64,000 nt of DNA from assembly GCA_965198235.1 (NCBI GenBank), contig OZ240248.1:4064001-4128000 (forward strand). Reading direction: 5' to 3'. This DNA comes from Candidatus Poribacteria bacterium (GTDB lineage Bacteria > Poribacteria > WGA-4E > WGA-3G). The translations under genes and the position numbers were made by a program. This document shows, in pieces, positions 5,841 to 45,297 of the stretch (positions are counted from its first letter, which is position 1; each line of letters begins with the position of its first letter). The notes under the pieces are model-generated. The model was given only the letters and a program-made list of their open reading frames with translations. It was not told the origin of the DNA and ran no database searches.

Positions 5841-6028
5841 GTTCTATTTCCTCCAGAGTTTGAATTGTGTTGAACTCTGTAACGGATATCCTCTTAAATG
5901 CGTTGACAAGCTCTTTATAAAATAATATCACAAAAGGCTTGGGAATGCAAGTCAAAATTTTCCTACGTTTGCGTGGTTATCCCTTCCTACAGAAAAACTG
6001 AATAGCCCTGCCCCCATAAATCTCCTAA

Positions 6029-6057
6029 TTGACATTCCATCCCGATTGTGATATGAT
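6029..6057 (+). promoter_or_regulatory. Sigma70-type promoter for sixA
   Basis: TTGACA-N17-TATGAT. Confidence 0.6.
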
Positions 6058-6094
6058 ACGAACAGATACAAAAGAACTCTACAGAGGGAATATC

Positions 6095-6592
6095 ATGAAA
6101 ACTCTTCTGATTCTGCGACATGCCAAATCGAGTTGGAATTATCCAGAACTCTCTGATTACGGCCGACCTCTTAATGCACGGGGTAAACGGGACGCGCCGC
6201 GCATGGGAGAATTTCTGCGTGAACAAGGGTTAATTCCCGACAGGATCCTCACTTCATCGGCAAAGCGTGCAAGAAAAACGGCGAGTAAAGTTGCAAAAAC
6301 GTGTGGTTATACGGGTAAAGTCAAAAAGGTAGATGCGTTTTATGATAGCGTCGCTGGAGTCTACTATGAAACATTACAAGCACTGCCAGACAAATATCAG
6401 CGCGTCATGGTCGTGGGACATAATCCGACCATGGAACAACTCGTCCGTTCCTTGACGGGAGAGTTCAGACAGATGCCAACCGCAGCACTTGCCCATATCG
6501 AACTTCCCATCCAACGTTGGGAAGCACTGAACGTGGATACAGAGGGAACCTTAGTCAACTTATGGACACCCAAAACGCTTTTCACCGATTGA
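6095..6592 (+). CDS. sixA: SixA-like histidine phosphatase
   Basis: MKTLLILRHAKSSW...RPLNARG...VVGHNPT; ATG at 6095 after GAGGG. Confidence 0.88.
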   Translation: MKTLLILRHAKSSWNYPELSDYGRPLNARGKRDAPRMGEFLREQGLIPDRILTSSAKRARKTASKVAKTCGYTGKVKKVDAFYDSVAGVYYETLQALPDKYQRVMVVGHNPTMEQLVRSLTGEFRQMPTAALAHIELPIQRWEALNVDTEGTLVNLWTPKTLFTD

Positions 6593-7956: not shown

Positions 7957-8118
7957 GCAGCTATCCCCGCTCAAATAGGTAAGAGAAGGGCACTGTTCTC
8001 ATGAATTTGTATCTTTTTTATGAGGAGACCATGACAACTTGACTTAAGTCAAATTGATTCTGGAACCGCTTATGAAATGAACGGTAGCAAGGTATAGAAG
8101 GACCCCACTTAGCCCTAT

Positions 8119-9993: not shown

Positions 9994-9994
9994 A

Positions 9995-10228
9995 TCAGTC
10001 GTCTCTCTTTTGGTGAATAAGGTCGTAAAGCATTTGGGCTCGAACTTTTTCACGCCCGTTCGTCAACGTCAGTTCAAATGCGCGCACAATCGCTTCAAGT
10101 TCAGCGGGACCGAGGGTTTTATACTTCTCTTCCTGCTGAATCAGTGCCTCAATTTCTTTTCTGTAAATATGTTGCGTCTCGTTTTCAAGGGAGATGTCCA
10201 TAGTAGTGTCTTTCAGGAGCAGATTCAA
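9995..10228 (-). CDS. Small hypothetical protein
   Basis: Exactly fills the gap between the aminotransferase (overlapping its stop) and the SMC-like gene; helical, charged composition. Confidence 0.6.
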   Translation of the reverse strand: MNLLLKDTTMDISLENETQHIYRKEIEALIQQEEKYKTLGPAELEAIVRAFELTLTNGREKVRAQMLYDLIHQKRDD

Positions 10229-11421
10229 ATTTTCGCTTTAATCCCCATTAGGCGTTCGACGGCTTCGGCGAGGATGTCGTCCGCCATACTAAACATGAAC
10301 CGAAATTTCGTCCTACCGAGGTGTGGACGACTGTAGAAACTCGATCCCGGCACACCGCCTACCCCGATTTCCTTCACCAACCAGTGGGCAAAGGCTGTAT
10401 CATCAGGAAACCCAAAATCGGTGATGTCGGTCATGATGTAATACGCGCCCTCCGGCTCATGACAGTGGAACCCGGCTTTCGTGAGGTTATCAACGAGATA
10501 TTTACGATTCTTGTCATATTTCGCGACCAAGGTTGCATGGTAACTCGGCGGCAAATTGAGCGCAACGACTCCAGCACGCTGCAGTGGATGCGGTGCACCG
10601 ACTGTCAGGAAGTCATGCATTTTGCGGATGGCATCGGTCAAAGTCTCCGGTGCGATGACATAACCTAATCGCCAGCCCGTCATAGAATATGCCTTGCTCA
10701 ATCCCGACACGGTGATCGTCCGATCCCGCATTTGCGGCAGTGAACCGATACTGAGATGGGATTTATCATCATAGATCATGTGCTCGTATATTTCATCGGT
10801 GATAGCGAGGCAGTCGTATTCACAGCAAAGGTTAGCAATCTCTTGAAGCTCGTCTTGGGTAAAAACCTTGCCGAGTGGGTTATTCGGGGTGTTTATGACG
10901 ATCGCTTTTGTGTTGGCAGAGAAGGCATCTCGGAGTTCGGTTGCGTCGTAGGTAAAACGGATAGGGTTTCCGTCAGATGCGGGTGTCTCCTGCAATGCCA
11001 CATAGACGGGTTTTGCACCAGAAATGATGGTATCCGGTCCGTAGTTCTCATAAAAGGGTTCAAAAATAATAATCTCGTCGTCGGGATTGATGATTGCGAG
11101 AAGCGAGGAGAGCATGCCTTCGGTTGAGCCGCAGGTGACAGTCACGTTTCTGTCAGGATCGGTAGGAATGCAGTTGAACGTCGTCATTTTATGAGCGATT
11201 GCTTCACGAAACGCCGGTGCTCCCCAAGTGATGCTGTACTGATTATATCCTTCTTGAATTGCTTCAATCGCTGCGGTTTTGACTTCGGGAGGGGGTTGAT
11301 ATGCTGGTGTGCCTTGGGAGAGATTGATTGCATCATAGCGCAGGCAGAGCTGCGTCATGCCGCGGATGACGGATTCGGTGAAACGGGTGGATTTGTCTGA
11401 AAGTTTAGATTGAACGGAAAT
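10225..11421 (-). CDS. Class I/II PLP-dependent aminotransferase (YbdL/kynurenine-aminotransferase-like)
   Basis: INLSQG, NTPNNPLG, DEIYEH, SGLSKAYSMTGWRLGY. Family-like RFTESVIR lies upstream of ATG 11358; probable ATT start at 11421. Confidence 0.9.
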   Translation of the reverse strand: MSVQSKLSDKSTRFTESVIRGMTQLCLRYDAINLSQGTPAYQPPPEVKTAAIEAIQEGYNQYSITWGAPAFREAIAHKMTTFNCIPTDPDRNVTVTCGSTEGMLSSLLAIINPDDEIIIFEPFYENYGPDTIISGAKPVYVALQETPASDGNPIRFTYDATELRDAFSANTKAIVINTPNNPLGKVFTQDELQEIANLCCEYDCLAITDEIYEHMIYDDKSHLSIGSLPQMRDRTITVSGLSKAYSMTGWRLGYVIAPETLTDAIRKMHDFLTVGAPHPLQRAGVVALNLPPSYHATLVAKYDKNRKYLVDNLTKAGFHCHEPEGAYYIMTDITDFGFPDDTAFAHWLVKEIGVGGVPGSSFYSRPHLGRTKFRFMFSMADDILAEAVERLMGIKAKI

Positions 11422-26122: not shown

Positions 26123-26230
26123 ATGCAAATCATCGCCAGAGAGGTCCGAAACTATATCACATCAAACGGGCGGAATCCGTTCCGCGAGTGGTTGACACAA
26201 CTTCAAGATGAACATGGAAACTCTACTTAA
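26123..26230 (+). pseudogene. Truncated RelE/HigB-type addiction-module killer toxin
   Basis: MQIIAREVRNYITSNGRNPFREWLTQLQD resembles the killer-protein N-terminus; the frame runs into the antitoxin and stops after 35 aa. Confidence 0.7.
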
Positions 26231-26534
26231 GCAAACGACCAGTTTTAGAGATGACCTTCTGAAAGACCTCGCAGACATGGAGTTCGCGATGTACTACTTG
26301 GAAGTTGCCCTATCAGACTATAAGGAAGATAGTAATACAGAAGCACTCTGGACAGCACTGTATGATGTTGTAGCGGCACAAGGCGGAATAGGAAAACTCG
26401 CTGAAAGGGCAAAGGTTAATCCTGAACATCTCAACGATATACTCGCCTCTAAACCGGACCCGCGCTTAGATAATCTGCAAAACATTCTTTCTAGACTCGG
26501 ATTTCAGATTCGCTTGGAATTCGCCGAAAGCTAA
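26208..26534 (+). CDS. Addiction-module antidote HTH protein (HigA/HI1420-like)
   Basis: YLEVAL...ALYDVVAAQGGIGKLAERAKVN...L...DPRLDNL..IL..LG. Confidence 0.85.
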   Translation: MNMETLLKQTTSFRDDLLKDLADMEFAMYYLEVALSDYKEDSNTEALWTALYDVVAAQGGIGKLAERAKVNPEHLNDILASKPDPRLDNLQNILSRLGFQIRLEFAES

Positions 26535-27042: not shown

Positions 27043-28218
27043 CTATCCAATCTCTTTATCCAACTCCTCCTGACTCATTTCCTGTACAAATTTGAGAGTA
27101 ATTTCCGAGTCTTTTCCCTCTTCAAAAATCCCCTCTTCAAATGCTCTTATCAACACATTACCGCACCGCTTATTCACGTCTCTCGGTGTTCCGCGTTGCA
27201 AGTTAGACAGGAGTGCCCGGAGTGCCTCTTCCGTAAACGGAAAATAAGGTGTTTTTGGCTTTTCTTGGGGTCTGTAGTAAGAGAGAAGCTCACGGACATA
27301 TTGCAGCATCTTTTCTTGATCTTTCATTTCGTCAAAGAAAACATGTCGAGTAATCCGGTCAGTGAGATAACCTCCAAGAATCAGTTCAATTTCTTCATAC
27401 TCCTCCGGCGAAGTAAGCGTGAAATTCATGAAAAGTGTGAAGAAATAGGGAAGCCGATCTACGAGTTCACGCAATCCTTGTCCAAAAGGCCGGTATTGTG
27501 GCGGTGTAAAATAAATGAAATTCTCCATTTCATCAACCCATAGGCAGAATCGATTGTGCTGGGCTACATCAGTGGATTCAGATAACCCTATAAGACAGTG
27601 AAAAACGCCTGCCAATACCCGAAAATAGTCTTGCGTTTTCGCAATGTTTCGGTTTAAGCCAAGTTTTCGCAATTCCGTAGTCGTGCATTTGCCAAGGAAG
27701 TAGGCACTTAACAGCGAACTAGGCCCCGGAGAGATTGGTGAATCTTCAAATAAATTAAGCAATGCATTCGCGAAATCACCACTCACCATAATTTGACGAA
27801 GGTTTCGTTCAACTATATCCCGCCCAATAGATTCCACATTTTTTTTCACTGCCTCCGCTATTCGATCAAGTCCAATCTGTTCCATGACATCCAAATAAAA
27901 ATCCCTTGCAGGATTCCCAGCTTCGGTAGGTGCCTGAACTCTGAGAACCTCCACATTCTGGACGCTCGGTGATGTCTCAGGAATATTTTTGTCGGAACTA
28001 AAGAAAAGTGAAGCATGTGTTTTACCTCCACCAATAGGACCTCGGCATAACACCACCTGCGTTGGTGACGATGCTTTGGCTTCCCGAAAGACCCTATTAA
28101 ATTCACCTCTGATCACATCCATACCTGCCCAAATTACCTGTTTAGGGTCAGTTGGAGGACTAATCGTAAAGGGGTTTTCCCGTAAACAGGCTATATTCCA
28201 ATCAACCAAGAATTTCAT
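27043..28218 (-). CDS. P-loop AAA+-type ATPase (candidate defence effector subunit)
   Basis: ENPF N-terminal motif, Walker A GPIGGGKT, Walker B LWVDEME, YFPFTEEA...GTPRDVN; ATGA overlap with the upstream gene. Confidence 0.8.
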   Translation of the reverse strand: MKFLVDWNIACLRENPFTISPPTDPKQVIWAGMDVIRGEFNRVFREAKASSPTQVVLCRGPIGGGKTHASLFFSSDKNIPETSPSVQNVEVLRVQAPTEAGNPARDFYLDVMEQIGLDRIAEAVKKNVESIGRDIVERNLRQIMVSGDFANALLNLFEDSPISPGPSSLLSAYFLGKCTTTELRKLGLNRNIAKTQDYFRVLAGVFHCLIGLSESTDVAQHNRFCLWVDEMENFIYFTPPQYRPFGQGLRELVDRLPYFFTLFMNFTLTSPEEYEEIELILGGYLTDRITRHVFFDEMKDQEKMLQYVRELLSYYRPQEKPKTPYFPFTEEALRALLSNLQRGTPRDVNKRCGNVLIRAFEEGIFEEGKDSEITLKFVQEMSQEELDKEIG

Positions 28219-28850
28219 GACTTACCTCGTTTTCTCACAGATGGCAAAACTTTAAGCATACTCTCTAATTCCTTGAGACAATCGCGACACTTACTAAGAC
28301 GCTTCGTCATCTCCTGTTGCGTTCCGGCAATATGAGGATTTATAAGTCGTAAAGCCGAATCAGCCTGAGCGTACGACCACTTTGGAAACATAACAAGATA
28401 GATATGCAGCAGCAACTCCAGCGAAGTCCAAGTTCTTGTTGTTTTGAAGCGATTCTTGTACCAATCAATCAGACCTCGATGTGCCTTCATGTCGTCTGTC
28501 AACATAATAACTTGTCCTGCATATCGTCTCCGAACCAGATAAAGCGCAAGCGCACAGTTATAACGTTCTCCACGATTGTTAGATGGGTTGCCATTTGGCG
28601 AAAATTTGTTAAAAATCAAGTCCTCATAATCCTGCTCATGGGGAAAATATCGCCTCGCTTGACGCACGAATTGTAGCATCGGTTTGTCGTAGCATCCTAA
28701 TTTATTTCTATTTCGCCTGATTTCGTGTGGAATTTCTCGTGAGACTTGCACATTGAACAGTTGATTTAAAATATCAATAATGTGGGATCGGCCTACGTAA
28801 ACCTCATGTATGTTTATGAGCGAAGATGTATCAGGAATCAGAATATCCAT
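28215..28850 (-). CDS. PIN-domain-like putative nuclease
   Basis: MDILIPDTSSL...RGERYNCALAL...MLTDDMKA reproduces the PIN acidic motifs; start taken at ATG 28850. Confidence 0.65.
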   Translation of the reverse strand: MDILIPDTSSLINIHEVYVGRSHIIDILNQLFNVQVSREIPHEIRRNRNKLGCYDKPMLQFVRQARRYFPHEQDYEDLIFNKFSPNGNPSNNRGERYNCALALYLVRRRYAGQVIMLTDDMKAHRGLIDWYKNRFKTTRTWTSLELLLHIYLVMFPKWSYAQADSALRLINPHIAGTQQEMTKRLSKCRDCLKELESMLKVLPSVRKRGKS

Positions 28851-28860
28851 AAGCCTTGGG

Positions 28861-29958
28861 TTAAGTTGGCAAAAAAATAAGATATGACTCATTTTCACGG
28901 TGGGAAAACCGGACTGCATACTGTGTATCAGGCTCTTTAGAACACGCGTCTAGATCCGCATGAAGCTCCTCAAGGTTCACCGCGATTCTGTTATCCCCTG
29001 TGAGAAGGAGTGCCATATAAATGAGTGCCGGATATAAAGAAATCTTCGGCGTAGGTGTGTTCCGGAGCGTTTCAAAGGCTTGAAAAGTGAGTTTGTGAAG
29101 CAGATATTTTTTTTCTAAATCATGTATTTCTGTCCATCGTCGATCAATTGTGCCCATAAGGACCTGTGCAGCAATGCCAAAGAATTGCTCCCGCAACCAC
29201 ACCGGACTTGTGTGAAAAGTCGGCATTCCTTGAATGTTCGGAAGAGACCGAGAAAACTGAATCCCCATCTCTGTTAATCGAGACCGTGTTTCCCCGTCAT
29301 TCTCAACTGAGACCAAACCAAGGTCTGCCAACCAATGAATCCGCGGTGGTACAATATTTTCGATAGAACGTCTTGACCCTTCCTTCCAATGTGACACGCG
29401 GTTCCGGACTGCCAAGATGTCACGTGCTACATGCTCTTCCGCTGTCAGCATACGGGCTTGCAATTGTTGCAGATAAAACGCGGGGAAAGCGTTTTGCAAA
29501 TCGGATAGAGGTTGAGAACGCTTTCCTACCAACATTCTAATAATTGTGAGCAGTTGATCGCTATCCTTCAAAAGAAGCCAATATAGATACGCACAGCGTT
29601 CCGCGTTCGTCAGTTCAAACGGATTTTGATGAGGAGCTCGACACAGAAAAGGGAGCAATGCCTTTCCAAATCGAGTCACACGGTACGCGCCAGCGATTCT
29701 ACCGACGAGGCCCAACGAAACTGCCAAATTAGTGTAGCGTTTTGGACCCGTTTGCCCGCGTGTCGCTTTAATAAAGCCCTGTTGATTCGCGTAAGCCATC
29801 AAATTTTTCTCACGATCAAGGCTCCATTTTTCAAGCCGAGTATAAAGCATAGATTCGCTTAATGTACTATGCTCAAGTAATTGTAGAATTGCAGAGACAT
29901 AACCTAAGCGGCGAACAAGTACATTAATGTCTGTGATTCCAGCTTCATATTTAGGCAT
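28861..29958 (-). CDS. Hypothetical protein with two winged-helix-like motifs
   Basis: LGLV...YRVTRFG and WLADLGLV...LTEMG resemble wHTH wings; first gene of the operon. Confidence 0.6.
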   Translation of the reverse strand: MPKYEAGITDINVLVRRLGYVSAILQLLEHSTLSESMLYTRLEKWSLDREKNLMAYANQQGFIKATRGQTGPKRYTNLAVSLGLVGRIAGAYRVTRFGKALLPFLCRAPHQNPFELTNAERCAYLYWLLLKDSDQLLTIIRMLVGKRSQPLSDLQNAFPAFYLQQLQARMLTAEEHVARDILAVRNRVSHWKEGSRRSIENIVPPRIHWLADLGLVSVENDGETRSRLTEMGIQFSRSLPNIQGMPTFHTSPVWLREQFFGIAAQVLMGTIDRRWTEIHDLEKKYLLHKLTFQAFETLRNTPTPKISLYPALIYMALLLTGDNRIAVNLEELHADLDACSKEPDTQYAVRFSHRENESYLIFLPT

Positions 29959-30108
29959 TTGGCAACCTGCCTGTCAGGGTGTAACCATGAAGAAACTTAG
30001 TCAGACAAAGGGAACAACGACCCACCATTTGGAGGGTCTATCTAACTATTAGTATTGCAGAAGTACGAGGAAACTTCTTAACCACGCGCTACTACAATCA
30101 AGAATAAT

Positions 30109-30137
30109 AGTATACCAAATTTTCCAAACAATCTCAA
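30109..30137 (-). promoter_or_regulatory. Sigma70-type promoter for the three-gene operon
   Basis: Minus-strand TTGAGA-N17-TATACT with extended -10 TG. Confidence 0.55.
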
Positions 30138-30381
30138 GAAAAAGATTAATAATCTACGGGCATATAGCTTTCGATCTATAATTCTTAAGTTCAGAGTAGT
30201 GTAATTCCGGCAGTAATGGCAGTGCTACGGAATACTGCTCTCCTGATATTGTGCCTTGAAATACAAATTTACTGTGCCGATGATGCGTTATTTCGCCTCA
30301 TATTCACAGCAGACGCTCGCATTCATCGAAAACGATTTTAAGACTAATTGTTCCTGACACTTCGCGCATGTCCAATGCACG

Positions 30382-30411
30382 TTGACTTCTTTTGAACATA
30401 TAAAGTATAAT
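30382..30411 (+). promoter_or_regulatory. Sigma70-type promoter for sspB (probably leaderless mRNA)
   Basis: TTGACT-N18-TATAAT ending 7 nt before ATG 30419; no SD sequence. Confidence 0.55.
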
Positions 30412-30418
30412 AAGTTAT

Positions 30419-31357
30419 ATGGAGAATTTCTTAACAACTGAACACATAACTCCACCACAACTGACGAATCCTTCTTTCTCGGGTCATCAGACTTTTCCGT
30501 TTCGGTATACATGGCTGAAAAAAGGTGTTGATGCTGTAATAGAAAATCCGACTGTCTTTTCATCGGAAGATGCCTCCGTTACTTTAGGCGTTGGAAAAAA
30601 CATGGTAAGCTCTATTCGACATTGGTGTACCGTCGCTAGACTCATTAAGGCGGATCCGCACCAGCGTAGAAGGCTTGTTCCGACTGAACTCGGCAAAGCC
30701 ATTTTTAACGACAAAAATGGCTTTGATCCATACCTTGACGATCCAGCAACCCTGTGGCTGATTCACTGGCAGATCACAACGAACATCAACCAAGCAACTG
30801 CATGGTATTGGGCATTTAACGTTTTGAGAAAAAATCAATTCACATCCGATACATTTAAAAAACAAGTGTCCGAGTGGACACAGCAACATAAAGCCTCCGC
30901 GCGACCGGTCTCTGACAACACACTTCAACGGGATATCCATTGCTTTATCCGAACCTACTGCCAGTCACGTCATACCACTGCCGTAGTCGAGGAGAGCTTT
31001 GACTGTCCGCTCGCCGAACTTAACCTAATCGCCGAATCACCAGAAGGTAATGGGTATGAATTCCAACGAGGAGAAAAAGAGACACTATCGTTTGAAGTTT
31101 TTACAGCGACGCTCGTCGCATTTTGGGATCTTTGTTTTTTGGGCAGGGATGCCTTACCATTTTCAGACCTGATGTATGCCCCCTTAAGTCCCGGACGAAT
31201 CTTCAGGTTAGACGAAGACACAATGACAGCATATCTTGAAAACCTTACGCAACTTACTAATGAAGCCCTGCAATACGATGAAACCGCAGGTTTGAAACAG
31301 GTCTATCGACGGGACAATCTAAACCTGATGAAACTCTTAGAGAGGCATTATGGATAA
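30419..31357 (+). CDS. sspB: DUF4007 protein, SspB-like
   Basis: FSGHQTFPFRYTWLKKG, LGVGKNMVSSIRHW, DPYLDDPATLWLIHW, CPLAELNLI, ETAGLKQ; context with an ATPase and a PAPS-reductase-like gene. Confidence 0.85.
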   Translation: MENFLTTEHITPPQLTNPSFSGHQTFPFRYTWLKKGVDAVIENPTVFSSEDASVTLGVGKNMVSSIRHWCTVARLIKADPHQRRRLVPTELGKAIFNDKNGFDPYLDDPATLWLIHWQITTNINQATAWYWAFNVLRKNQFTSDTFKKQVSEWTQQHKASARPVSDNTLQRDIHCFIRTYCQSRHTTAVVEESFDCPLAELNLIAESPEGNGYEFQRGEKETLSFEVFTATLVAFWDLCFLGRDALPFSDLMYAPLSPGRIFRLDEDTMTAYLENLTQLTNEALQYDETAGLKQVYRRDNLNLMKLLERHYG

Positions 31358-34300
31358 CACCCCTTTGTCAAAACTTTTTCAGATTAAGGGTCGTTTTAAG
31401 CGTTCAGTTCATCTGGAACGCGATTTCTACACGGAGAACGCCTTAGATGGGTACATTTTGACCGTTACCGCGCGCGAGATGCTATCGCGTGTCATTGCGA
31501 CGCTTGAAAATGAGACAACATCGAAAGTTTGGTCCCTCACCGGTCCTTACGGGTCAGGAAAATCAGCATTTGCACTTTTCATAGCGAAACTCCTCGGAGA
31601 TCCTAATATTCCCGCAACTCGACAGGCTTTAAAAGTCTTAAAAGATGGAGATACCGCACTACATAAGCAATTTATGGATGCAAAGCTTAACGGAAATTGG
31701 TCGTTATCGGGATTTTGTCCTGTGCTTATCTCTGGAGAGCGCGCCCCACTCTCAATTGCCCTTCTGCGTGGTTTAGAACAAGGACTCAAAACCTCTGAAT
31801 TTCTGTCTGTTGGCTCACTTCAACGGAAGATCAGAAAACTATTGAGAACAGCAGCGAACGGCACACCTCCACAGGCATCTGAAATTACTGCTCTTTTTGA
31901 ATTAGCAACGAGTACTATTGGGGAAAACGGTGGCCAGGGTTTACTATTAGTGATCGATGAACTTGGCAAGTTCCTCGAGTATGCTGCACAAGACCCTGTA
32001 CAAGGCGATATTTTTGCGCTACAAACTCTTGCTGAATTTGCTACACGAAGTGAGCAAACACCACTATTCTTACTGACAATTCTTCATCAAGCCTTTGAAC
32101 AGTATGCAAGTAAAGCAGCCAAATCGCAACAGGAAGAGTGGGCAAAAATACAGGGACGGTTTGAAGATATAGCATTTATGGAACCTACAGAACAGGTACT
32201 CCGTCTGATCGGTTCTGCTATCGAAAGGACTTCAGAAGGTAAAGAAGAAAATTTATCTTTGCCCATTCAATTCGACCTCAAACCGAGCCAACTTACCCAG
32301 GACGAATTTAGCGAACTCCTGAGAAACTGCTTGCCACTCCATCCAACCGTTGTACTTGTTATAGATTCAATTTTCCGGCGATTCGGACAGAATGAACGTT
32401 CCCTCTTTGCCTTCCTCAGTTCAAGCGAACCTCATGGACTCCAAGACTTTCTTTTTAATCAGCGTTACAACAGAGATACATTACCTCTGTTCTCAATCGC
32501 CGACCTGTACGATTACCTCAAGACTAATATGGGGAATCGGCTGTATATCTCACACAATAGCAAGAAGTGGGCAGAAATTGAATCAGCAATAGGTCGACTG
32601 TCAGACTCATCCGCTATGTCAGCTAAGCTGATTAAAACGATCGGGATACTTGGCATCGTTGGTGAATCAATTCCAAATCTGAAAGCCTCAGAACCGATGC
32701 TCCGTTACACGTTAGATGATAAAACAAAAGGGTTTGCCCATGAATTTGAGACAGCACTTACCACGCTGAAGGAGCGTTCAATTGCCATTTATCGCCGTTA
32801 CAATAAGGCTTACGCGCTTTGGCAAGGAAGTGACATCGACATTGAAGCAAAACTCCGTGAGGCAGAAGGAAGCGTTTATACAAAAGCCAACCTCGCCACA
32901 ACTTTGTCGCGCTATCTGCCGATACGTCCCCTCGTCGCCCGACGACATCTATTTGAAACAGGCACCTTTCGTCATTTTGCCCTTCGGTACACCGATCTTG
33001 AAAACTTTGATGCGGATATTAAAAAGCCACTTGGTGATGCAGATGGATTTGTGCTCTACACGCTTCCAGCAAATGAATATGAAGTTAACCAATTAGTTGA
33101 AAAGGCAAGTGAGGATGCTCTTGCTTCCCTTCAAGAGGTGTTAATTGCAATCCCCCAAGCTATAGGCACTCTACAAGATGCTGTTACCCAACTCACCCAC
33201 CTATATTGGGTTTCCGAGAACACACCTGAATTAGAAGGAGATCAAATAGCAAGACTTGAACTCTCAGTGCAGCAAATACAAGCGGAAAAGGAAGTGTCTG
33301 ATAGACTAACAACAATCTTTGGCAAAGACAGTAAAAATGCTTGTACATGGTACCACCAGGGACAGCCCGTAAACATTAACTCTCAACGCTCAAAAAACGC
33401 TTACCTCTCAAAAATCTGTGATGATATCTACGATAAGACCCCCATTATTCGGAACGAACTAGTCAACCGACGGGAAATCTCTCGTGCCGCAACAACAGCA
33501 AGAAAGAAATTAATTCAAGCGATGCTTGAGAGTGATGATCAGAGAAATCTCAGAATCATGGGTTACCCTCCTGAAATGAGCATCTACCGCTCCCTCTTAT
33601 GGAAGACCGGAATACATCGCGAAGCCTCAGGTGTATGGGGATTTTACCCACCCAAAACAGGCGATAAGAACAGAATGGAGTACACCTGGAAAGCAATCGA
33701 GGCGTTTCTTACTGAGTGTGAAGGGAAACGACAACCTATTGAAGCACTCTATAAACGTCTGATGGCACCGCCACTCGGTGTGCGAAATGGTCCACTGCCT
33801 ATTCTTTTGTGTGCTGCGATGATGCATTACAAAACCGAAATTGCGCTCTACGAAAACGGTTCTTTTATACCAGACTGGTCAATGCCAGTTTTTGAAAGAC
33901 TGCTCAAAGTGCCTCAACAATTTGAACTGAAACGTTTTCAAATAGCAGGTATCCGTGCAAATCTGTTAGCACAATTTTTGGAGAGACTCAATCAACCAAT
34001 GGCGGTAGAAGACTCTGATTTGTTGATGGTCGTCACGCCACTTATTCGCTCTATAGCACAACTTCCAAAGTACGCACTAACAACACAAGAATTGAGTGAC
34101 ACCTCAAAAAATGTAAGGGAAGCCATTCTGAATGCGCGTGAACCCGACGAACTCCTCTTTAACCAATTGCCTGAAGCACTCGGATTCCCTGTCTTTGGCA
34201 CAGAAACAGCAATAGATGCAAAGGTTGTTTCGGATTTCTTCACCACACTGCAAGACGCTCTGTCCGAGTTAGAGCAGGCTTACGAAGTGCTACTGAACTC

Positions 34301-34847
34301 CATTGAGCAGTTGCTCGCGAAAGCCTTCAATTTGACCCCGAAGAAAGAAGAACTCCAAACAGAATTGGTCGCCAGAGCTGAGCCCTTGTTAGAAATAGTA
34401 ATCGAAACTGATTTTAAAGGGTTTTTAATTCATATCTGTAGCAGCGGACATGATTTCACCAGTTGGCTTGAGGCAATTTCAACCTATCTTACCAAAAAAA
34501 CACCTGCATCGTGGGTAGACTTGGATAAAGCACAATTTCAAAGCAATCTCTCTCAATTCACGAGGAAATTTCGGCATTTTGAAGCGGTGTCTTACGAAAA
34601 ATGGGAGCATACTGAATTATCAGCAGGTGAGCCAATTCGCATCGGCATTACAAGACCTAAACACCCCGAACAGGAACAGGTTGTCATTTTGCCTTCAACT
34701 GCTGAGGAACAAGTAAATAAATTGGAACGCGCAATTGAGAAAGCTTCTGACGAAATTGATACAGATGGAAACCTTGAATTCCGTCTTGCAGTTTTAGCAC
34801 GAATCTCGCAAAAATTGATGTCCAAGGATAAACAAGAAACATCTTGA
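31350..34847 (+). CDS. sspC: Large ATP-binding protein, SspC-like
   Basis: RFKRSVHLERD, Walker A TGPYGSGKS, Walker B LVIDELGKFLE, EWAKIQGRF, FGQNERSLFAFL; overlaps the sspB stop. Confidence 0.8.
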   Translation: MDNTPLSKLFQIKGRFKRSVHLERDFYTENALDGYILTVTAREMLSRVIATLENETTSKVWSLTGPYGSGKSAFALFIAKLLGDPNIPATRQALKVLKDGDTALHKQFMDAKLNGNWSLSGFCPVLISGERAPLSIALLRGLEQGLKTSEFLSVGSLQRKIRKLLRTAANGTPPQASEITALFELATSTIGENGGQGLLLVIDELGKFLEYAAQDPVQGDIFALQTLAEFATRSEQTPLFLLTILHQAFEQYASKAAKSQQEEWAKIQGRFEDIAFMEPTEQVLRLIGSAIERTSEGKEENLSLPIQFDLKPSQLTQDEFSELLRNCLPLHPTVVLVIDSIFRRFGQNERSLFAFLSSSEPHGLQDFLFNQRYNRDTLPLFSIADLYDYLKTNMGNRLYISHNSKKWAEIESAIGRLSDSSAMSAKLIKTIGILGIVGESIPNLKASEPMLRYTLDDKTKGFAHEFETALTTLKERSIAIYRRYNKAYALWQGSDIDIEAKLREAEGSVYTKANLATTLSRYLPIRPLVARRHLFETGTFRHFALRYTDLENFDADIKKPLGDADGFVLYTLPANEYEVNQLVEKASEDALASLQEVLIAIPQAIGTLQDAVTQLTHLYWVSENTPELEGDQIARLELSVQQIQAEKEVSDRLTTIFGKDSKNACTWYHQGQPVNINSQRSKNAYLSKICDDIYDKTPIIRNELVNRREISRAATTARKKLIQAMLESDDQRNLRIMGYPPEMSIYRSLLWKTGIHREASGVWGFYPPKTGDKNRMEYTWKAIEAFLTECEGKRQPIEALYKRLMAPPLGVRNGPLPILLCAAMMHYKTEIALYENGSFIPDWSMPVFERLLKVPQQFELKRFQIAGIRANLLAQFLERLNQPMAVEDSDLLMVVTPLIRSIAQLPKYALTTQELSDTSKNVREAILNAREPDELLFNQLPEALGFPVFGTETAIDAKVVSDFFTTLQDALSELEQAYEVLLNSIEQLLAKAFNLTPKKEELQTELVARAEPLLEIVIETDFKGFLIHICSSGHDFTSWLEAISTYLTKKTPASWVDLDKAQFQSNLSQFTRKFRHFEAVSYEKWEHTELSAGEPIRIGITRPKHPEQEQVVILPSTAEEQVNKLERAIEKASDEIDTDGNLEFRLAVLARISQKLMSKDKQETS

Positions 34848-34872
34848 TATCTCGGGAAGTATATGGTACAAT
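34844..34872 (+). promoter_or_regulatory. Internal promoter for sspD
   Basis: TTGATA-N17-TACAAT with extended -10 TG; AGGAGG RBS before 34914. Confidence 0.5.
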
Positions 34873-34913
34873 TGGGAACATAGAGTTACAAAACAACTAC
34901 CTCAGGAGGAAAC

Positions 34914-35795
34914 ATGGCACAAAAAGTTCGCCATCTGCTCGGCCTCTCCGGTGGTAAAGACAGTTCTGCCCTCGCTGTCTACATGAGGGATAGGGTGCCT
35001 GAGATGGAATACTTCTTTTCTGACACCGGTAAGGAGTTGCCAGAGACCTATGAGTTTTTGGATCGGTTAGAGGTATTCCTCGGCAAACCGATTGTCCGCC
35101 TTAACATGGACCCGGATCCCAATACCAACCGAGATTTCGATCACTGGCTGACAGTATACGAAGGTCTGCTCCCGTCGTCTCAGGTCCGCTGGTGCACCGT
35201 TGACCTCAAAATCAAACCATTTGAGGCGTACGTGGGCGAAGATAAAGCATATCATTACATCGCTATCCGCGCCGACGAAGATCGTGTCGGTTATAAACCG
35301 CCGAAGATTTCCTCCCTTCGCAATATCAAACCCAAATACCCATTCAAACAGGATGGCATCACCAAAGAGGATGTCTACCGAATTTTGGAGGAAAGCGGTA
35401 TCGGTTTGCCTGACTATTACAAGTGGCGGACGCGTTCGGGGTGTTACTTCTGTTTTTTCCAGCGCAAATCCGAGTGGGTAGGACTGTTAGAGCAACATCC
35501 AGACCTCTTTGAACGCGCCAAGGAATACGAAAAACCCAATCCAAAATCAAAGACAGGAGAATTATTTACGTGGTGTCAGGGTGAAACTTTAGAAGAGTTG
35601 TCTAAACCAGAACGGATAGCAGAGATCAAGGCAAATACCGAAAAGGCGATAGAAGATAAGAAAAAAGCAATAGAGGACAAGAAAATGACTAAACCAAATC
35701 AAACCCTGATGCAAATTCTCACCCGAGCTGAAATCCTTACTGAGGTGCTTGACGATGAGGATGATGAAGAACCGTGTTTGATTTGTCATAAGTAA
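34914..35795 (+). CDS. sspD: PAPS-reductase-family protein, SspD-like (phosphorothioation)
   Basis: PP-loop SGGKDS, DTGKELPETY, RWCT..LKIKP, RSGCYFCFFQ, C-terminal PCLICHK. Confidence 0.85.
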   Translation: MAQKVRHLLGLSGGKDSSALAVYMRDRVPEMEYFFSDTGKELPETYEFLDRLEVFLGKPIVRLNMDPDPNTNRDFDHWLTVYEGLLPSSQVRWCTVDLKIKPFEAYVGEDKAYHYIAIRADEDRVGYKPPKISSLRNIKPKYPFKQDGITKEDVYRILEESGIGLPDYYKWRTRSGCYFCFFQRKSEWVGLLEQHPDLFERAKEYEKPNPKSKTGELFTWCQGETLEELSKPERIAEIKANTEKAIEDKKKAIEDKKMTKPNQTLMQILTRAEILTEVLDDEDDEEPCLICHK

Positions 35796-36168: not shown

Positions 36169-36400
36169 AATATTCCCCTTGACTTTATGCTTTATATATG
36201 TTATACGTATAGTATATTATGCTAACGATTTGAAGAAAACCAAAATCGAAAATGTTACACTTTTCGTCAAATTATTTTTTTCACAACGAAAATTTACAAA
36301 AAACGGTCATGAACCCTTACGGTTACTGGATTCCATGCCAATAACCAATGTACACAAAATGTTACACTGGTGTAACATTTTAAGGGGAATTTCCATGTAA
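36169..36400 (+). repeat. ~240-bp direct repeat, copy 1
   Basis: Aligns with 39861-40120; contains a promoter, AAAATGTTACACT, GAACCC-N11-GGATTC and the palindrome AAAATGTTACAC-TG-GTGTAACATTTT. Confidence 0.85.
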
Positions 36401-36616: not shown

Positions 36617-39600
36617 ATGTCCGACCTGAACATCAAGCCTACGCATAAACCTATCAAAACCTACTACGCCGAACTCGAAAAATACGCGCAACTCGGTGAA
36701 GAAAACGAAGGTACCGTCCGCGCCGCATTCCAAAACCTTCTCCAACATTATTGCCACCAATCCGACTTCACACTGCTCTGTGAAAAGACACGCGCCGCCT
36801 CTGATACAGGGACCCAAGGCGGTTACAGACGCATTCGACCGGACGGGGAAGTCGTAGATGCCTTCGGACTGCCACACGGCTACTGGGAAGCCAAAGATAC
36901 ACAAGACGACCTCCGCCTTGAAGCGTCCAAGAAGTTTGCTGCAGGTTATCCGTCGAAAAATATTGTTGTGCAGTCACCCACCCACGCCCTCCTCTATCAG
37001 GATGGGCAGCTGCAGCTCGATGTGGACATCACCGATCCGAGAAACCTCGTCCGTATGCTACAGACCTTCTTTGCGTATCAGGAGGCAAATATCTCGGCAT
37101 GGCATGCGGCAGTCTCCGAATTCAGAGAGACGGTGCCGGAACTCGGCGAAAAGTTGGCAGCACTCATCGAAACAGAACGTCAAAACAATCCACACTTCCG
37201 AGAGGCGTTCACCAATTTCCATCAGCAGTGCCAAGCCTCCATTAATCCAAACCTCTCGATTGCCGCTGTAGAGGAGATGCTCATTCAACATCTCCTGACG
37301 GAGCGGATTTTCGCTACCGTTTTCAAGAACCGTGATTTCACTCGCCGTAACATTATTGCCAGGGACATCGAGAAAGTGATTGATGTGCTGACAGAGCATG
37401 CCCTGAACCGCGACCAATTTCTTCAAAGTTTGGATCCGTTCTACGTTGCGATTGAGAAAACCGCGGCGACTATCACGGATTTCTCACAAAAACAGGGATT
37501 CCTCAACGCCGTCTACGAGCAGTTTTTTCAAGGCTTCTCCGTCAAGGTCGCCGATACACACGGTATTGTCTACACACCGCAGCCGATCGTCGACTTTATG
37601 GTGAAAAGCGTCGAGCATATCCTACAGACCGAATTTAACCGCTCACTTTCAGAGAGCGACGTGAATATCATTGACCCATTTGTTGGCACGGGTAACTTCA
37701 TCGTGCGTATCATGCAGGCACTCGATCCCATTTCGTTAGAGCGAAAATACACTGCTAATCCGCCGGAACTCCAGTGCAACGAGGTGATGCTGCTGCCCTA
37801 CTACATCGCCTGTCTCAACATAGAACAACAATTTTACGCCGCAACGAACCGATACGCCCCTTATGAAGGTATCTGTCTGGTGGACACGTTTGAGATGGCA
37901 GAAGAACGACAGATACAGATGTTTACGCCTGCCAATACAGAGCGTGTTGAGAAACAGAAGCAGACACCGATGTTCGTCGTTATCGGTAACCCGCCCTATA
38001 ACGCAGGACAGATCAACGAAAACGATAACAACAAGAATCGGGAATATGAGACGATGGATGAACGGATCGCGGACACTTACGCGAAAGACTCCAAAGCGAC
38101 CCTGAGAAATAAACTCTACGATCCCTATGTCAAAGCCATCCGATGGGCTTTGGATAGAATTGGCGATGAGGGGATTGTCGCTTTTGTGACAAACAACAGC
38201 TTTCTCGACGGGGTCGCATTTGACGGCATGCGAAAACACCTCGCCGCAGACTGCGACGCGATCTATATTCTGGATTTAGGAGGGAACGCAAGAAAGGGAT
38301 TGAAGGTCTCCGATGCGAATGTGTTCGGCATTCGTGTAGGGGTGAGCATCAATCTATTTGTGAAAAATAGGCAGAATCCATCAGAACCACCTCGTATTTT
38401 TTACTACTGCACAGATGATTTATGGAACAGAAAACAGAAATTTGATTTTCTGAATGAACGAGAGCACGCGGGCAGAATTGAATGGCAAAATATCCAACCG
38501 GATGCGCGACATACGTGGCTCAGCGAAGGTCTCCACGCTGAATTTGAAACCTTTATTCCGATGGGAAGTAAGGCAGCAAAGACGGTAAAAGATGACCCCA
38601 CAGATGTAATATTCAAAACCTATAGCAACGGCGTAAAGACCAATCGTGATGCGTGGGTTTACAATTTCAACCGAAACGTGCTGACAGAGAACATAAAGAG
38701 AATGATTGAAAATTACAACGCGGAAGTTGCTCGGTGGGTGCAACGGACAGATCGAGAGACTAAACTTGATAATTATGTCGTTTCCGATGACACGAAAATC
38801 AAGTGGAGTCGTGATTTAAAAGTGAAATTAGACCGAGGAACAACGTCCGAATATACTGAACACAAGGTAAGAACAGCCCTCTATCGTCCGTTTACGAAAT
38901 CCAACCTCTACTTTGACCGAACAATGAGTGATGTGGTCTCCGTATTTCCATCTATTTTTCCCACACTTTATACAGAAACGGAAAATCGGGTGATATGGCT
39001 TAAAGTCGGCAAAGAGTGGCCGATGTTTGGACTGATGGCCAACCAATTTCCTGATCAGTTGCCACAAGGGGGTTCTCAATGCTTCCCTTTCTATACCTAT
39101 GACGAAGACGGCACAAACCGCCAAGAAAACATTACCGATTGGGCATTGACACAATTCCAAACGCACTACAAGGATAATGCCATCACCAAGTGGGACATCT
39201 TCCACTACAACTACGGCATCTTACACCATCCCGACTACCGTGAGAAGTATGCCGCCAACCTCAAGCGTGATCTGCCCCATATCCCCTTCACTGATGATTT
39301 CTGGGAATTTGCAAAGGCAGGTGCGCGCCTCGCAGACCTCCACGTCAACTACGAATCTCAACCTGAATATAGCGATCTCAAATTCATTCAGAACCGCGAT
39401 GTTCCGCTTAATTGGCGCGTTGAGAAGATGAAACTCTCAAAAGATAAAACCTCGCTTATCTACAACAACTTCCTAACGATAGCCGGTATTCCCATAAAGG
39501 CTTTTGACTATCGGCTTGGCACCCGCTCCGCGTTAGAATGGGTAATAGACCAGTATCGCGTGAAAACCGATAAACGGAGCGGTATCGTCAACGATCCGAA

Positions 39601-39709
39601 CCGTGCCGACGATCCGCAGTACATCGTCAAGTTGATTGGGAAAGTGACAACAGTAAGTTGGGAGACAGTGGACATTGTAAACGAACTGCCGGCGTTAGAC
39701 CTTCGCTAA
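36617..39709 (+). CDS. Type ISP/IIG-like restriction-modification enzyme without helicase
   Basis: N-terminal RPDG...GYWEAK (PD-(D/E)xK); MTase GIVYTP, IIDPFVGTGNF and IGNPPY; ISP-type C-terminus (GVKTNRDAWVY, YRPF, RSALEWVIDQY). Confidence 0.88.
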   Translation: MSDLNIKPTHKPIKTYYAELEKYAQLGEENEGTVRAAFQNLLQHYCHQSDFTLLCEKTRAASDTGTQGGYRRIRPDGEVVDAFGLPHGYWEAKDTQDDLRLEASKKFAAGYPSKNIVVQSPTHALLYQDGQLQLDVDITDPRNLVRMLQTFFAYQEANISAWHAAVSEFRETVPELGEKLAALIETERQNNPHFREAFTNFHQQCQASINPNLSIAAVEEMLIQHLLTERIFATVFKNRDFTRRNIIARDIEKVIDVLTEHALNRDQFLQSLDPFYVAIEKTAATITDFSQKQGFLNAVYEQFFQGFSVKVADTHGIVYTPQPIVDFMVKSVEHILQTEFNRSLSESDVNIIDPFVGTGNFIVRIMQALDPISLERKYTANPPELQCNEVMLLPYYIACLNIEQQFYAATNRYAPYEGICLVDTFEMAEERQIQMFTPANTERVEKQKQTPMFVVIGNPPYNAGQINENDNNKNREYETMDERIADTYAKDSKATLRNKLYDPYVKAIRWALDRIGDEGIVAFVTNNSFLDGVAFDGMRKHLAADCDAIYILDLGGNARKGLKVSDANVFGIRVGVSINLFVKNRQNPSEPPRIFYYCTDDLWNRKQKFDFLNEREHAGRIEWQNIQPDARHTWLSEGLHAEFETFIPMGSKAAKTVKDDPTDVIFKTYSNGVKTNRDAWVYNFNRNVLTENIKRMIENYNAEVARWVQRTDRETKLDNYVVSDDTKIKWSRDLKVKLDRGTTSEYTEHKVRTALYRPFTKSNLYFDRTMSDVVSVFPSIFPTLYTETENRVIWLKVGKEWPMFGLMANQFPDQLPQGGSQCFPFYTYDEDGTNRQENITDWALTQFQTHYKDNAITKWDIFHYNYGILHHPDYREKYAANLKRDLPHIPFTDDFWEFAKAGARLADLHVNYESQPEYSDLKFIQNRDVPLNWRVEKMKLSKDKTSLIYNNFLTIAGIPIKAFDYRLGTRSALEWVIDQYRVKTDKRSGIVNDPNRADDPQYIVKLIGKVTTVSWETVDIVNELPALDLR

Positions 39710-39860: not shown

Positions 39861-40120
39861 AATATTCCCTTGATTTTTTGCTTTATATATGTTATACTTA
39901 AAATATAATAGCAATTTAAAGAAAACGAAAAAACGAAGCAATCTAACGGAACAGTCGACAACCATAATCGCAAAATGTTACACTTTGCACCAAATTATTT
40001 TTTTCCACAACGGAGATTTACAAAAAAACGCCTCTGAACCCTTACAGTTACTGGACTCCATGCCAATAACCACCGCACACCAAATGTTACACTGGTGTAA
40101 CATTTTAAGGAGAATTCTCA
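39861..40120 (+). repeat. ~240-bp direct repeat, copy 2
   Basis: Same elements as 36169-36400, with a short insertion. Confidence 0.85.
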
Positions 40121-43422: not shown

Positions 43423-45297
43423 ATGCCAAACGTTCAACTTACTGGAAACCAGAGCGACTTCCTCAAAATCGTCGTCGCAGCAGCAGGACGCGGTGACCTC
43501 GAAACCGTCCGACAATTGGTCGATGACAATCCAGCGTGGATTCACACCGTCGGTTCACACGGTCGGACGATGCTGTGGGAAGCGGCATATCGGGGCAAGC
43601 TGGAGGTCGTTCAATTCCTCCTTGAACGCGGTGCCGATATAAACGTGCCGGGTTGCTACCATATCGAGCATCGCCTTGAAATAACACCCTACTGCGCCGC
43701 ACGGCATAAGGGACGCGACCGCGTCGCGGATTACCTACGCCAGCACGGCGCGACAATCGACATTCATACCGCCGCCTACCTCGGAGATTACAATACTGTC
43801 CGCTCGCATCTCGACAACGACGCAAATCTCATCAACAGCGGATACCTTCAGGCAGTGATGCTACCCGCAGGGAAACCCCATACCTTTGAACACCGAAAAA
43901 CGGCATGGGCAACGCCACTCTGCTACGCCGTCATGGGCGGAAACCGGGCGATTGTCGAATTGCTCATCTCACGAGGGGCGACAATCACGCCACACAGTGA
44001 ACGATTGCTGGATTACGCCGTCTCGGAAAATCGGGTAGAAATCGCCAAGTTGTTGCTCGAAAACGGTGCAGATCCGAGTAAAGCCCCGCGCATCTTGGAC
44101 GACACCTCTGAAATGAGCGTGTTACTCAAGGCACACGGTGTCCCACCTAAGGACATAAACGCTCAGAACCACATGGGATGGCCCCCACTTGTCTATGCCT
44201 GTCGTGGCGACAACGGTGAACATCCAGACGACATTCAGCGACTGTTAGAACTCGGTGCCGATATCGACGTTCGGAATTACAAAGGGAAAACGGGGTTGCA
44301 TTGCGCGGCGAAGGCAGGTTTTCTCAAAGTCATCAATCTGCTCATCGAAAACGGTGCGACCCTCGATGCCACCGACAACGATGGCGAAACTCCACTGTTT
44401 GAGGCAATCCGATCAACGATTAAGAGCGGTGAAAAACAACGAGCATCAATAGAAGCGTTGCTTGTCAAAGGTGCCGATCCAAACGCTAAGAATCGGAAAG
44501 GGCTAACCCCGCTACAAGTCGCGAAGCGGATGCGACGGACAGACGCAAGCAAAATTGTCGAATTGCTGAAAACACCTTACACACGCGAAAAACTCACCCA
44601 AGACTTTACCAATCTCGGCATTCAAAAAGCAGACACACTTTTTATCCATTCATCTTTTAAGAGTCTCGGATCCGTTGAGGGTGGGGCTGGCACAGTCATC
44701 TCTGCGTTAGAAGCGGCAGTCGGACAGGGAGGACTGATTCTGATGCCGACCTTCAGCCTTCTACCGAGTCGCGAAGAACGCGTCGCCGCGTGGAATATCG
44801 ACAAGACGCCGTCCACGGTGGGATGGCTGACGGAGTTTTTTCGGCAGATGCCCGACACCCATCGCTCCGACCACTATTCACACGCCGTTGCCGCTCGCGG
44901 GAAAGAGGCGAAGGCTTTTGTGTCTGACCACCTCCAACGCGAAGGCTACCAATCACCGTGGGATCATCACCCGTGGGGAAAGACTTACGGCACACATTCA
45001 CCGATGTTCCGTGCCTACAAGGCGAACGCCAAACTCCTCATGATCGGTGTCGATTATCAGACCTCGACCTATATCCATCTCGTTGAGGTTATCCATTGGA
45101 ACAAACGCCTCATCGGTGACTTGCAGGCAGAGTACATTGGGTTGAAGCGTCCAGAACTTGGTGAATTTTGGGAGAGGCTTGGTCAGTTGAGACAAGAGAA
45201 GGTGGGAGATTCCATCTGCCGGTTGTTCCACATTAAGCCGTATGTGGACACACTTCTGGCGGAGGTCGAGCGCAATCCTAAACCGTATGTCGCCTAA
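43423..45297 (+). CDS. Ankyrin-repeat protein fused to an AAC(3)/Antibiotic_NAT acetyltransferase domain
   Basis: Multiple ankyrin repeats (GRTMLWEAA, GKTGLHCAA, GETPLFEA), then LFIHSSFKSLG...GLILMPTF...GWLTEFFR...RSDH..H...LLMIGV....TYIHLVE. Confidence 0.85.
   Translation: MPNVQLTGNQSDFLKIVVAAAGRGDLETVRQLVDDNPAWIHTVGSHGRTMLWEAAYRGKLEVVQFLLERGADINVPGCYHIEHRLEITPYCAARHKGRDRVADYLRQHGATIDIHTAAYLGDYNTVRSHLDNDANLINSGYLQAVMLPAGKPHTFEHRKTAWATPLCYAVMGGNRAIVELLISRGATITPHSERLLDYAVSENRVEIAKLLLENGADPSKAPRILDDTSEMSVLLKAHGVPPKDINAQNHMGWPPLVYACRGDNGEHPDDIQRLLELGADIDVRNYKGKTGLHCAAKAGFLKVINLLIENGATLDATDNDGETPLFEAIRSTIKSGEKQRASIEALLVKGADPNAKNRKGLTPLQVAKRMRRTDASKIVELLKTPYTREKLTQDFTNLGIQKADTLFIHSSFKSLGSVEGGAGTVISALEAAVGQGGLILMPTFSLLPSREERVAAWNIDKTPSTVGWLTEFFRQMPDTHRSDHYSHAVAARGKEAKAFVSDHLQREGYQSPWDHHPWGKTYGTHSPMFRAYKANAKLLMIGVDYQTSTYIHLVEVIHWNKRLIGDLQAEYIGLKRPELGEFWERLGQLRQEKVGDSICRLFHIKPYVDTLLAEVERNPKPYVA

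Follow-up and report, generated by a model that had tools for sequence, protein, structure and literature searches.

A 64,000-nucleotide stretch of DNA from a Candidatus Poribacteria bacterium (assembly GCA_965198235.1, contig OZ240248.1, positions 4,064,001 to 4,128,000; hereafter the window) was found to carry, beside the phosphorothioate (PT) writer genes sspBCD, three coupled genes oriented head-to-head with them. These genes, referred to below as the trio, encode a 365-amino acid (aa) protein with three predicted winged helix-turn-helix (wHTH) domains, a 211-aa protein with a predicted PIN fold and a 391-aa P-loop ATPase. The trio adjoins PT genes in several phyla, and its link to phosphorothioation is strong. 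We somewhat favor the interpretation that the trio is a module working with PT writers, most likely as a PT-coupled effector arm.

The trio is located on the minus strand and starts with the gene for the triple-winged-helix protein (28861 to 29958). It is followed by the PIN gene (28215 to 28850, likely start at 28850, within an open reading frame (ORF) covering 28215 to 28919) and the ATPase gene (27043 to 28218). Near position 28850, 10 nt separate the TAA stop codon of the first gene from the ATG of the second (ATG GAT ATT), and the ATG of the ATPase gene shares four nucleotides with the TGA of the PIN gene (ATGA, 28215 to 28218). Across a divergent spacer of 460 bp (29959 to 30418), the plus strand carries sspB (30419 to 31357; PADLOC SspB, E 8.8e-101; Pfam DUF4007, E 4.3e-90), sspC for a 1165-aa BrxC/PglY-type ATPase (31350 to 34847; PADLOC SspC, E 0, 1082 bits) and sspD for a PP-loop enzyme resembling 3′-phosphoadenosine 5′-phosphosulfate (PAPS) reductase (34914 to 35795; PADLOC SspD, E 9.1e-115; Pfam PAPS_reduct, E 1.8e-7). 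The original prediction for this locus had named a DUF4007 gene, a large ATPase gene and a PAPS-reductase-like gene on the plus strand, which are thus SspB, SspC and SspD according to PADLOC and Pfam. It had further described a head-to-head minus-strand operon for proteins of 365, 211 and 391 aa with a 10-nt gap and an ATGA overlap, all of which are present. The motifs it listed were also recovered in the translations, namely GPIGGGKT (Walker A), LWVDEME (within the Walker B motif CLWVDEME) and GTPRDVN (within a TPRDxNKR motif) in the ATPase and DTSS (as PDTSS), GE and TDD (as LTDD) in the 211-aa protein.

Promoters for both arms had been proposed to lie in the spacer. The two best sigma-70-like consensus matches of the region are indeed found there, one for each arm (plus strand, 30382 to 30411, 11/12 positions; minus strand, 30137 to 30109, 10/12 positions with a TG), but the total number of such sites between 26.5 and 36.7 kb does not exceed chance (18 observed, 17.0 expected), and the candidates are consensus matches only. 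Four sponge metatranscriptome runs of one study contain pieces identical to all three trio genes. The pieces belong to contigs assembled from RNA libraries and are no proof of transcription, and nothing is concluded from stretches without coverage, which include most of sspC. A search of the region from 25.8 to 41.6 kb against Rfam gave nothing at E ≤ 0.1.

The trio proteins matched none of the named families searched. There was no match to a PADLOC model (E ≤ 0.01), no Pfam match above threshold and no match in NCBIfam or PHROG, and their sequence profiles revealed no relation to any solved chain. The PADLOC models for SspF, SspG and SspH (PDLC02793-02806) served as a positive control for this negative result. 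They recognized the true SspF, SspG and SspH of a cyanobacterial locus (L061) with E values of 4.8e-167, 8.6e-203 and 0, respectively, and the SspF of a metagenome locus (L105) with an E value of 6.7e-230. Because the same library recognized the true proteins, the trio is not SspFGH. An FtsK_SpoIIIE domain, present in the true SspH of locus L061 (E 1.5e-35), was found in none of the trio proteins. Likewise, no PADLOC match to DndF, DndG, DndH or PbeA to PbeD was obtained for the trio, and the library did find PbeA, PbeC, DndC, DndD and DndE at neighboring loci. The three proteins showed neither a DUF262 or DUF1524 match in Pfam nor an SspE match in PADLOC. In the entire genome, the single SspE model tried (PDLC02783) and the single SspH model tried gave no match. 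The earlier statements that SspE is absent and that the trio corresponds to neither SspE, SspFGH, DndFGH nor PbeABCD therefore hold for these models. The trio is not simply the missing SspE of sspBCD, since it also adjoins dndCDE and BREX-type-4-like genes, often together with known restriction arms (PbeA/C, SspFGH, PglZ-BrxL).

The structure model of the 365-aa protein (predicted local distance difference test score (pLDDT) 85, predicted template modeling score 0.89) contains three winged-helix domains at residues ~16-112, 125-245 and 278-365, and not two as had been assumed. At the C-terminus, the family alignment shows an invariant YxVRxSxRENExY motif. Foldseek related the model to FokI (E 2.1e-4), N.BspD6I and the crystal structure of SspB (6juf, E 0.012). 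VIA-align placed the recognition domain of FokI at Z 10.4 (root-mean-square deviation (rmsd) 4.8, 183 residues aligned), followed by BrxA (Z 9.5), N.BspD6I (Z 9.1) and SspB (Z 7.6). Judged by its model, the protein belongs to the multi-wHTH fold class of FokI, SspB, DndG and BrxA. The triple-wHTH proteins DndG, SspB and FokI are described as target-recognition modules by Rakesh et al. (2024, PMC10853773). At the sequence level, the protein had no Pfam match to DUF4007, and the best hit of its family profile among solved structures was a short stretch of AspA (E 0.028), leaving nothing usable.

For the 211-aa protein (model pLDDT 84), the top Foldseek matches were VapC and other PIN proteins, including VapC4 (probability 1.00, TMt 0.68, E 0.026). 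The 27 best rows of VIA-align were all PIN domains (Z 8.0-10.6), which covered residues ~1-145, with a VapC on top (Z 10.6, rmsd 3.2, 121 residues aligned). Residues 142-205 form an additional helical hairpin. A profile search of 1.84 billion representative sequences yielded 194 clusters at E ≤ 0.001, and conservation was assessed with the window protein and the 107 full-length proteins contained in the 150 best matches. In this set of 108, the canonical acidic positions were retained almost throughout (D7 in 106, E43 in 105, D119 in 104, and position 145 as D in 95 and as E in nine), as were G94-E95 (107/108) and D120 (102/108). These data suggest that the protein is a VapC-like PIN nuclease with an apparently active site. 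This relationship was invisible to Pfam, which gave no PIN match (0 families at E ≤ 0.01), and to the comparison of the PIN profile with solved structures (0 matches). Among 6,717 candidates, no longer protein with a fused PIN domain was found; as evidence, this is weak.

The Walker A, Walker B and TPRDxNKR motifs of the 391-aa protein were kept across all relatives aligned, and G60, G63, G65, K66, T67, D229, E230 and R346 are invariant. Pfam matches were below threshold throughout, with AAA_22 in eight and TniB in three of 11 members; the TniB match (20.8 bits, cut-off 22.4) came nearest to a threshold of all matches of the trio. Language-model neighbors fell into BrxC_BrxD (PF10923) or KAP clusters, in which PF10923 was present in 27-74% of the members; this is a lead only, and a direct PF10923 match was not obtained. 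Against solved structures, the single sequence gave no match and the profile a best E value of 0.35. The protein has an apparently active P-loop and may be an ORC/BrxD-like ATPase. Taken together, the folds and the conserved catalytic residues bear out the earlier domain assignment of a DNA binder, a PIN protein and an ATPase. An origin of the wHTH protein and the ATPase as paralogs of SspB and SspC was also considered and is unsupported by sequence: hhalign gave a probability of 3% over 39 columns in the recognition-helix stretch for the wHTH family and SspB, and of 6.5% for the ATPase family and SspC, restricted to the P-loop, neither being significant.

The neighborhood survey that had been proposed as a check showed the trio to be physically tied to PT genes well outside this genome. 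Among 176 Poribacteria genomes, the ATPase was found in 22, SspD in 124 and DndC in 64. PT writers are thus common in the phylum and the trio is a minority add-on. The frequency of PT writers is unusually high, and SspD and DndC often occur in one genome. Apart from the window, 24 of 25 matching places in the phylum were analyzed, and the remaining one overlaps L049. A complete or nearly complete trio is present at 20 loci including the window. At nine of them, which share one MutY/FGE site, the trio stands head-to-head with sspBCD, in one case (L033) without the PIN gene. Seven others have dndCDE as the head-to-head partner and PbeA/PbeC on the opposite side; these represent a second subfamily with 41-48% ATPase identity. 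At one locus (L038, 4529-7599), an sspB-like gene and genes for an HD protein and an Mrr-NACHT protein come after the trio, and two loci are cut by contig ends. The other matching places are a lone ATPase gene (L047), decayed fragments and one weak match that was not confirmed by tblastn (L050). Among the deviating loci, L047 (genome G067, 5965-7155) has a lone ATPase gene with a degenerate Walker A motif lacking GK[ST], which is oriented head-to-head with dndCDE and has no wHTH or PIN gene. In L037 (6775-7401), which is counted among the 20, the PIN gene contains an internal stop codon; the corresponding genome (G007) is 73% complete. L045 (genome G066) retains no more than pieces of the genes for the wHTH protein and the ATPase. 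Neither G007 nor G066 showed an SspD match at E ≤ 1e-30.

A scan of genomes from outside the phylum yielded 21 loci, of which five were analyzed; the other 16 were either labeled Poribacteria or matched loci already analyzed. In two Acidobacteria loci, sspB, sspC, sspD and the trio follow each other on one strand. A Pseudanabaena sp. has a single co-directional cluster with the order sspB-sspC-sspD-sspF-sspG-sspH-trio-sspA. The layout of Poribacteria recurs at one locus labeled Gammaproteobacteria, which may be a binning error. At a Chloroflexaceae locus (L070), the order is NACHT-PIN-ATPase, and sspBCD are located on another contig. Here, an 869-aa NNH1-NACHT protein takes the place of the wHTH protein before the PIN and ATPase genes (6714-11167), so that L070, like L038, is a variant with a STAND partner. 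Of 28 metagenome loci, several of which duplicate each other, 16 have PT genes beside the trio. Their commonest order is a gene for a BrxP-like PAPS reductase, the trio, sspB, sspC and sspA, and one of them runs on into sspF-sspG. A further metagenome locus (L097) has PglZ-BrxL directly upstream of the trio. The remaining 11 are short contigs, of which L081 (9.8 kb) offers ~7 kb of free sequence on one side and the others ~2.6 kb at most on either side. No tblastn match of the ATPase was obtained in plasmids, and a pattern scan of viral contigs detected no relative.

Orthologous sites without the trio were also identified. From genomes without an ATPase match, 20 trio-less Ssp loci were examined. 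Seven of these share the FGE/MutY-sspBCD arrangement, and their FGE and sspB genes are only 0.6-3.4 kb apart. Twenty Dnd loci without a trio at the site were examined as well, including two in genomes that possess an Ssp-type trio elsewhere, and at several of them dndC is the immediate neighbor of the oxidoreductase genes that border the trio at other loci. As the trio is absent from orthologous sites, it is a dispensable presence/absence cassette and not a component of the writer. At six of the 20 trio-less Ssp loci (L117, L121, L122, L123, L130, L133), sspD is directly followed by PbeA-like and mostly also PbeC-like genes with 21-34% identity to the Dnd-linked ones, which suggests a pairing of Ssp with Pbe. 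That the trio and Pbe-like genes might replace each other behind sspD was considered and not retained (0/9 versus 6/20, Fisher p 0.14, with related loci that are not independent).

In a tree of 46 ATPases, from which the partial row L088 was left out, three starred clades follow the writer type: an Ssp clade with 19 rows, a Dnd clade with nine and a BrxP/BREX4 clade with 16. The Ssp-type clade includes the window and the Acidobacteria, Pseudanabaena and Chloroflexaceae loci. The Dnd clade consists entirely of Poribacteria, and kinship contributes to the clade-by-writer pattern. The ATPases of L038 and L086 fall outside the three clades, and no relation to the wHTH protein was detected for the 387-aa ORF upstream of the latter. 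Among the ten Ssp loci with head-to-head layout (L027-L034, L055 and the window), the identity of SspB and SspC drops to 51-56% and the two co-vary (r 0.82), while SspD is at least 81% identical. Such divergence of SspB/SspC within one genus, with SspD and the MutY/FGE flanks remaining at ~80-95%, looks like an exchange of the specificity pair.

From the genes, their folds and catalytic residues, their coupling and the link to PT genes across phyla, we infer the following mode of action, which would serve defense against phages. The triple-winged-helix protein would bind DNA, and the three proteins would form a complex on it. The putatively ORC/BrxD-like ATPase could act there as an ATP-driven switch or clamp whose state is set by what the wHTH protein finds. 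In this way the PIN nuclease might be licensed either against DNA without the PT marks of the host, which it would nick, or against cellular RNA once such DNA has been detected, resulting in abortive infection. PT-marked self DNA would keep the module silent. This interpretation is favored by the fact that the adjacency to PT writers recurs independently of gene order and with three kinds of PAPS-reductase-based writers.

Several observations weigh against it. Most writers in Poribacteria lack a trio, as the numbers of genomes with SspD, DndC and the ATPase given above show. At one of the 20 trio loci of the phylum (L036), the trio is intact and the stretch analyzed contains no PT gene, the sspD gene of this genome being 1.4 Mb away. 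Genome G120 has a trio and no SspD or DndC match at E ≤ 1e-30; it is a metagenome-assembled genome whose contig breaks off next to the trio. The counts overstate independence, as many of the loci are closely related or duplicated. Among solved structures, the folds closest to the PIN protein are those of RNases (VapC) and not of DNases. Known restriction arms are already present at many trio loci, namely PbeA/C at Dnd loci, SspFGH at L061 and L105, and PglZ-BrxL at L097, so that no trio is required for a complete restriction-modification pair. Finally, in the ten head-to-head Ssp loci the trio proteins did not co-vary with SspB/SspC (r -0.27 to 0.03, n = 45 pairs), which speaks against a sequence specificity shared by trio and writer. 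The sequence comparison can be read as a swap of the writer's specificity pair without the trio, and any reading of DNA by the trio would probably not be tied to the motif of the writer.

A bolder version, which we put forward only tentatively, is that the trio is a writer-agnostic reader-effector of PT marks. One cassette family would serve Ssp, Dnd and BREX-type-4 writers and sense PT or its absence on DNA through the triple-winged-helix protein, without the specificity of the writer, and the ORC-like ATPase would switch on the PIN nuclease. If true, this would be the first effector common to all three PT-writing systems and a new coupling of an epigenetic backbone mark to a PIN nuclease. 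Reading PT independently of the writer's motif could also explain self-protection under partial, heterogeneous PT marking and could provide a compact PT-sensing tool.

The main rival, to which we assign a modest chance, is a PT-blind backup module for abortive infection, in which a VapC-like RNase is restrained by the wHTH protein and the ATPase and is freed when the PT system is inhibited or overwhelmed. It would agree with VapC toxins being the best structural matches and with the frequent presence of a primary restriction arm (PbeA/C, SspFGH, PglZ-BrxL) beside the trio. A role as suicide backup has been proposed for PIN and HEPN RNases that border Dnd and BREX loci and are in some cases encoded on the opposite strand (PMC10853773; 2026 BREX survey, PMC12839542), and HEC-03, an ABC ATPase with a PIN protein, is reported to provide phage defense (bioRxiv 10.1101/2024.01.29.577857). 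However, a pure backup would not need a triple DNA-binding protein of the FokI/SspB class of its own, nor clades that follow the writer type, and the ORFs scanned in the window and at the two Acidobacteria loci did not reveal another effector. The trio might also be an accessory of PT writing which, much as DndB modulates Dnd, sets the sites or the density of PT or processes or repairs PT sites. Many metagenome loci place it between the PAPS reductase gene and sspB-sspC in one operon, and in Poribacteria it occupies the divergent upstream position in which dndB is often found; a DndB match was present at only one of the seven Dnd-linked trio loci (L042). Nevertheless, most writers of the phylum manage without the trio, orthologous sites lack it, its proteins do not co-vary with SspB/SspC, and a conserved, apparently active nuclease site would be odd for a regulator, so that we regard an accessory role as improbable. 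A cassette of the toxin-antitoxin or stand-alone defense type without functional relation to PT, brought beside PT genes by shared defense islands, appears very improbable. Such an origin would fit the low GC content of the island in the window (0.44 compared to ~0.5) and the other defense-type genes in it, the cassettes located away from PT genes in L036 and L070 and the NACHT neighbors in L070 and L038. It would not account for the repeated adjacency to PT writers, which is seen with three types of writer, across several phyla, on either strand and in varying gene order, nor is it favored by the lack of relatives on the plasmids and viral contigs searched.

Downstream of sspD, the window encodes a 1030-aa Type ISP-like protein (36617 to 39709, plus strand) that matches the Pfam families Type_ISP_C (E 6.8e-101), ISP_coupler and N6_Mtase. 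It has the coupler, N6-adenine methylase and specificity domains and no helicase or nuclease part, and its PADLOC match covers only positions 746-1640 of a model with 1646 positions. The gene also follows sspD in L027 (93%) and L031 (83%), and a 39-aa remnant is present in L030 and a piece in L117. On both sides it is flanked by a repeat of ~155 nt with an internal palindrome in the same orientation (36250-36400 and 39957-40116). The genome contains at least seven copies of this repeat (74-87% identity); it has no Rfam match and is found in RNA-library contigs with many different flanks. Between FGE and the trio, a 108-aa ORF (26208-26534, plus strand) shows a match to the antitoxin-like family dnstrm_HI1420 below threshold (24.7 bits, cut-off 27) and has a counterpart in the corresponding position of L033 with 91% conservation. 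Further downstream, a 624-aa protein (43423-45297, plus strand) combines ankyrin repeats with an aminoglycoside 3-N-acetyltransferase-like domain.

No description of the trio was found in the literature, although the supplementary tables of PMC10853773 and PMC12839542 may list such neighborhoods. Known partners of PT writers comprise DndFGH, PbeABCD, SspE and SspFGH as well as DndI (PMC11662687), and also include BREX type 4 and TdpAB (PMC12914056). According to Wang et al. (2021, PMC8092258), 2,211 of 2,678 sspBCD clusters have neither sspE nor sspFGH nearby, and the authors asked about other restriction partners; the trio is a concrete and testable candidate for such a partner.

SspFGH of Vibrio anguillarum FF-93 resembles the trio in being a three-gene operon beside sspBCD with one Walker A member, and is reported to damage non-PT DNA, which is only proposed for the trio (Wang et al., 2021, PMC8092258). 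The two are unrelated in sequence according to PADLOC, SspH has ~1800 aa and an FtsK domain, and both systems occur together in L061 and L105. DndFGH, as described by Rakesh, Aravind and Krishnan (2024, PMC10853773), likewise combines a triple wHTH protein (DndG) with an NTPase and a nuclease and is paired with PT writers. In contrast, the predicted nuclease of the trio has a PIN fold and not a restriction endonuclease fold, its ATPase is small and putatively ORC/BrxD-like instead of HerA/FtsK-like, and its proteins are much smaller. HEC-03 shares with the trio an ATPase, a VapC-like PIN protein and the embedding in another defense system, and its anti-phage activity is experimental; as described, it differs by an ABC-class ATPase, the lack of a triple wHTH partner and its location within Hma and not in a PT system (bioRxiv 10.1101/2024.01.29.577857). 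In BREX, the DNA binder BrxA has several HTH domains and belongs with FokI and SspB, and the model of the 365-aa protein matches it; BrxD is described as a stand-alone ORC/Cdc6 ATPase (PMC12839542), and language-model neighbors of the 391-aa protein carry PF10923. The trio proteins have no BrxA or BrxD match in Pfam or PADLOC, however, and BREX has no PIN partner in such an arrangement. VapBC systems have a PIN fold with four acidic residues and a gene for a DNA-binding protein directly upstream, as does the trio, in which the upstream protein is, however, a 365-aa protein with three predicted wHTH domains and not a short antitoxin, and a translationally coupled ATPase gene is present as third gene. 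Compared with these systems, the trio, as a probably new PT-coupled arm, would add a PIN nuclease together with an ORC-like switch to PT biology.

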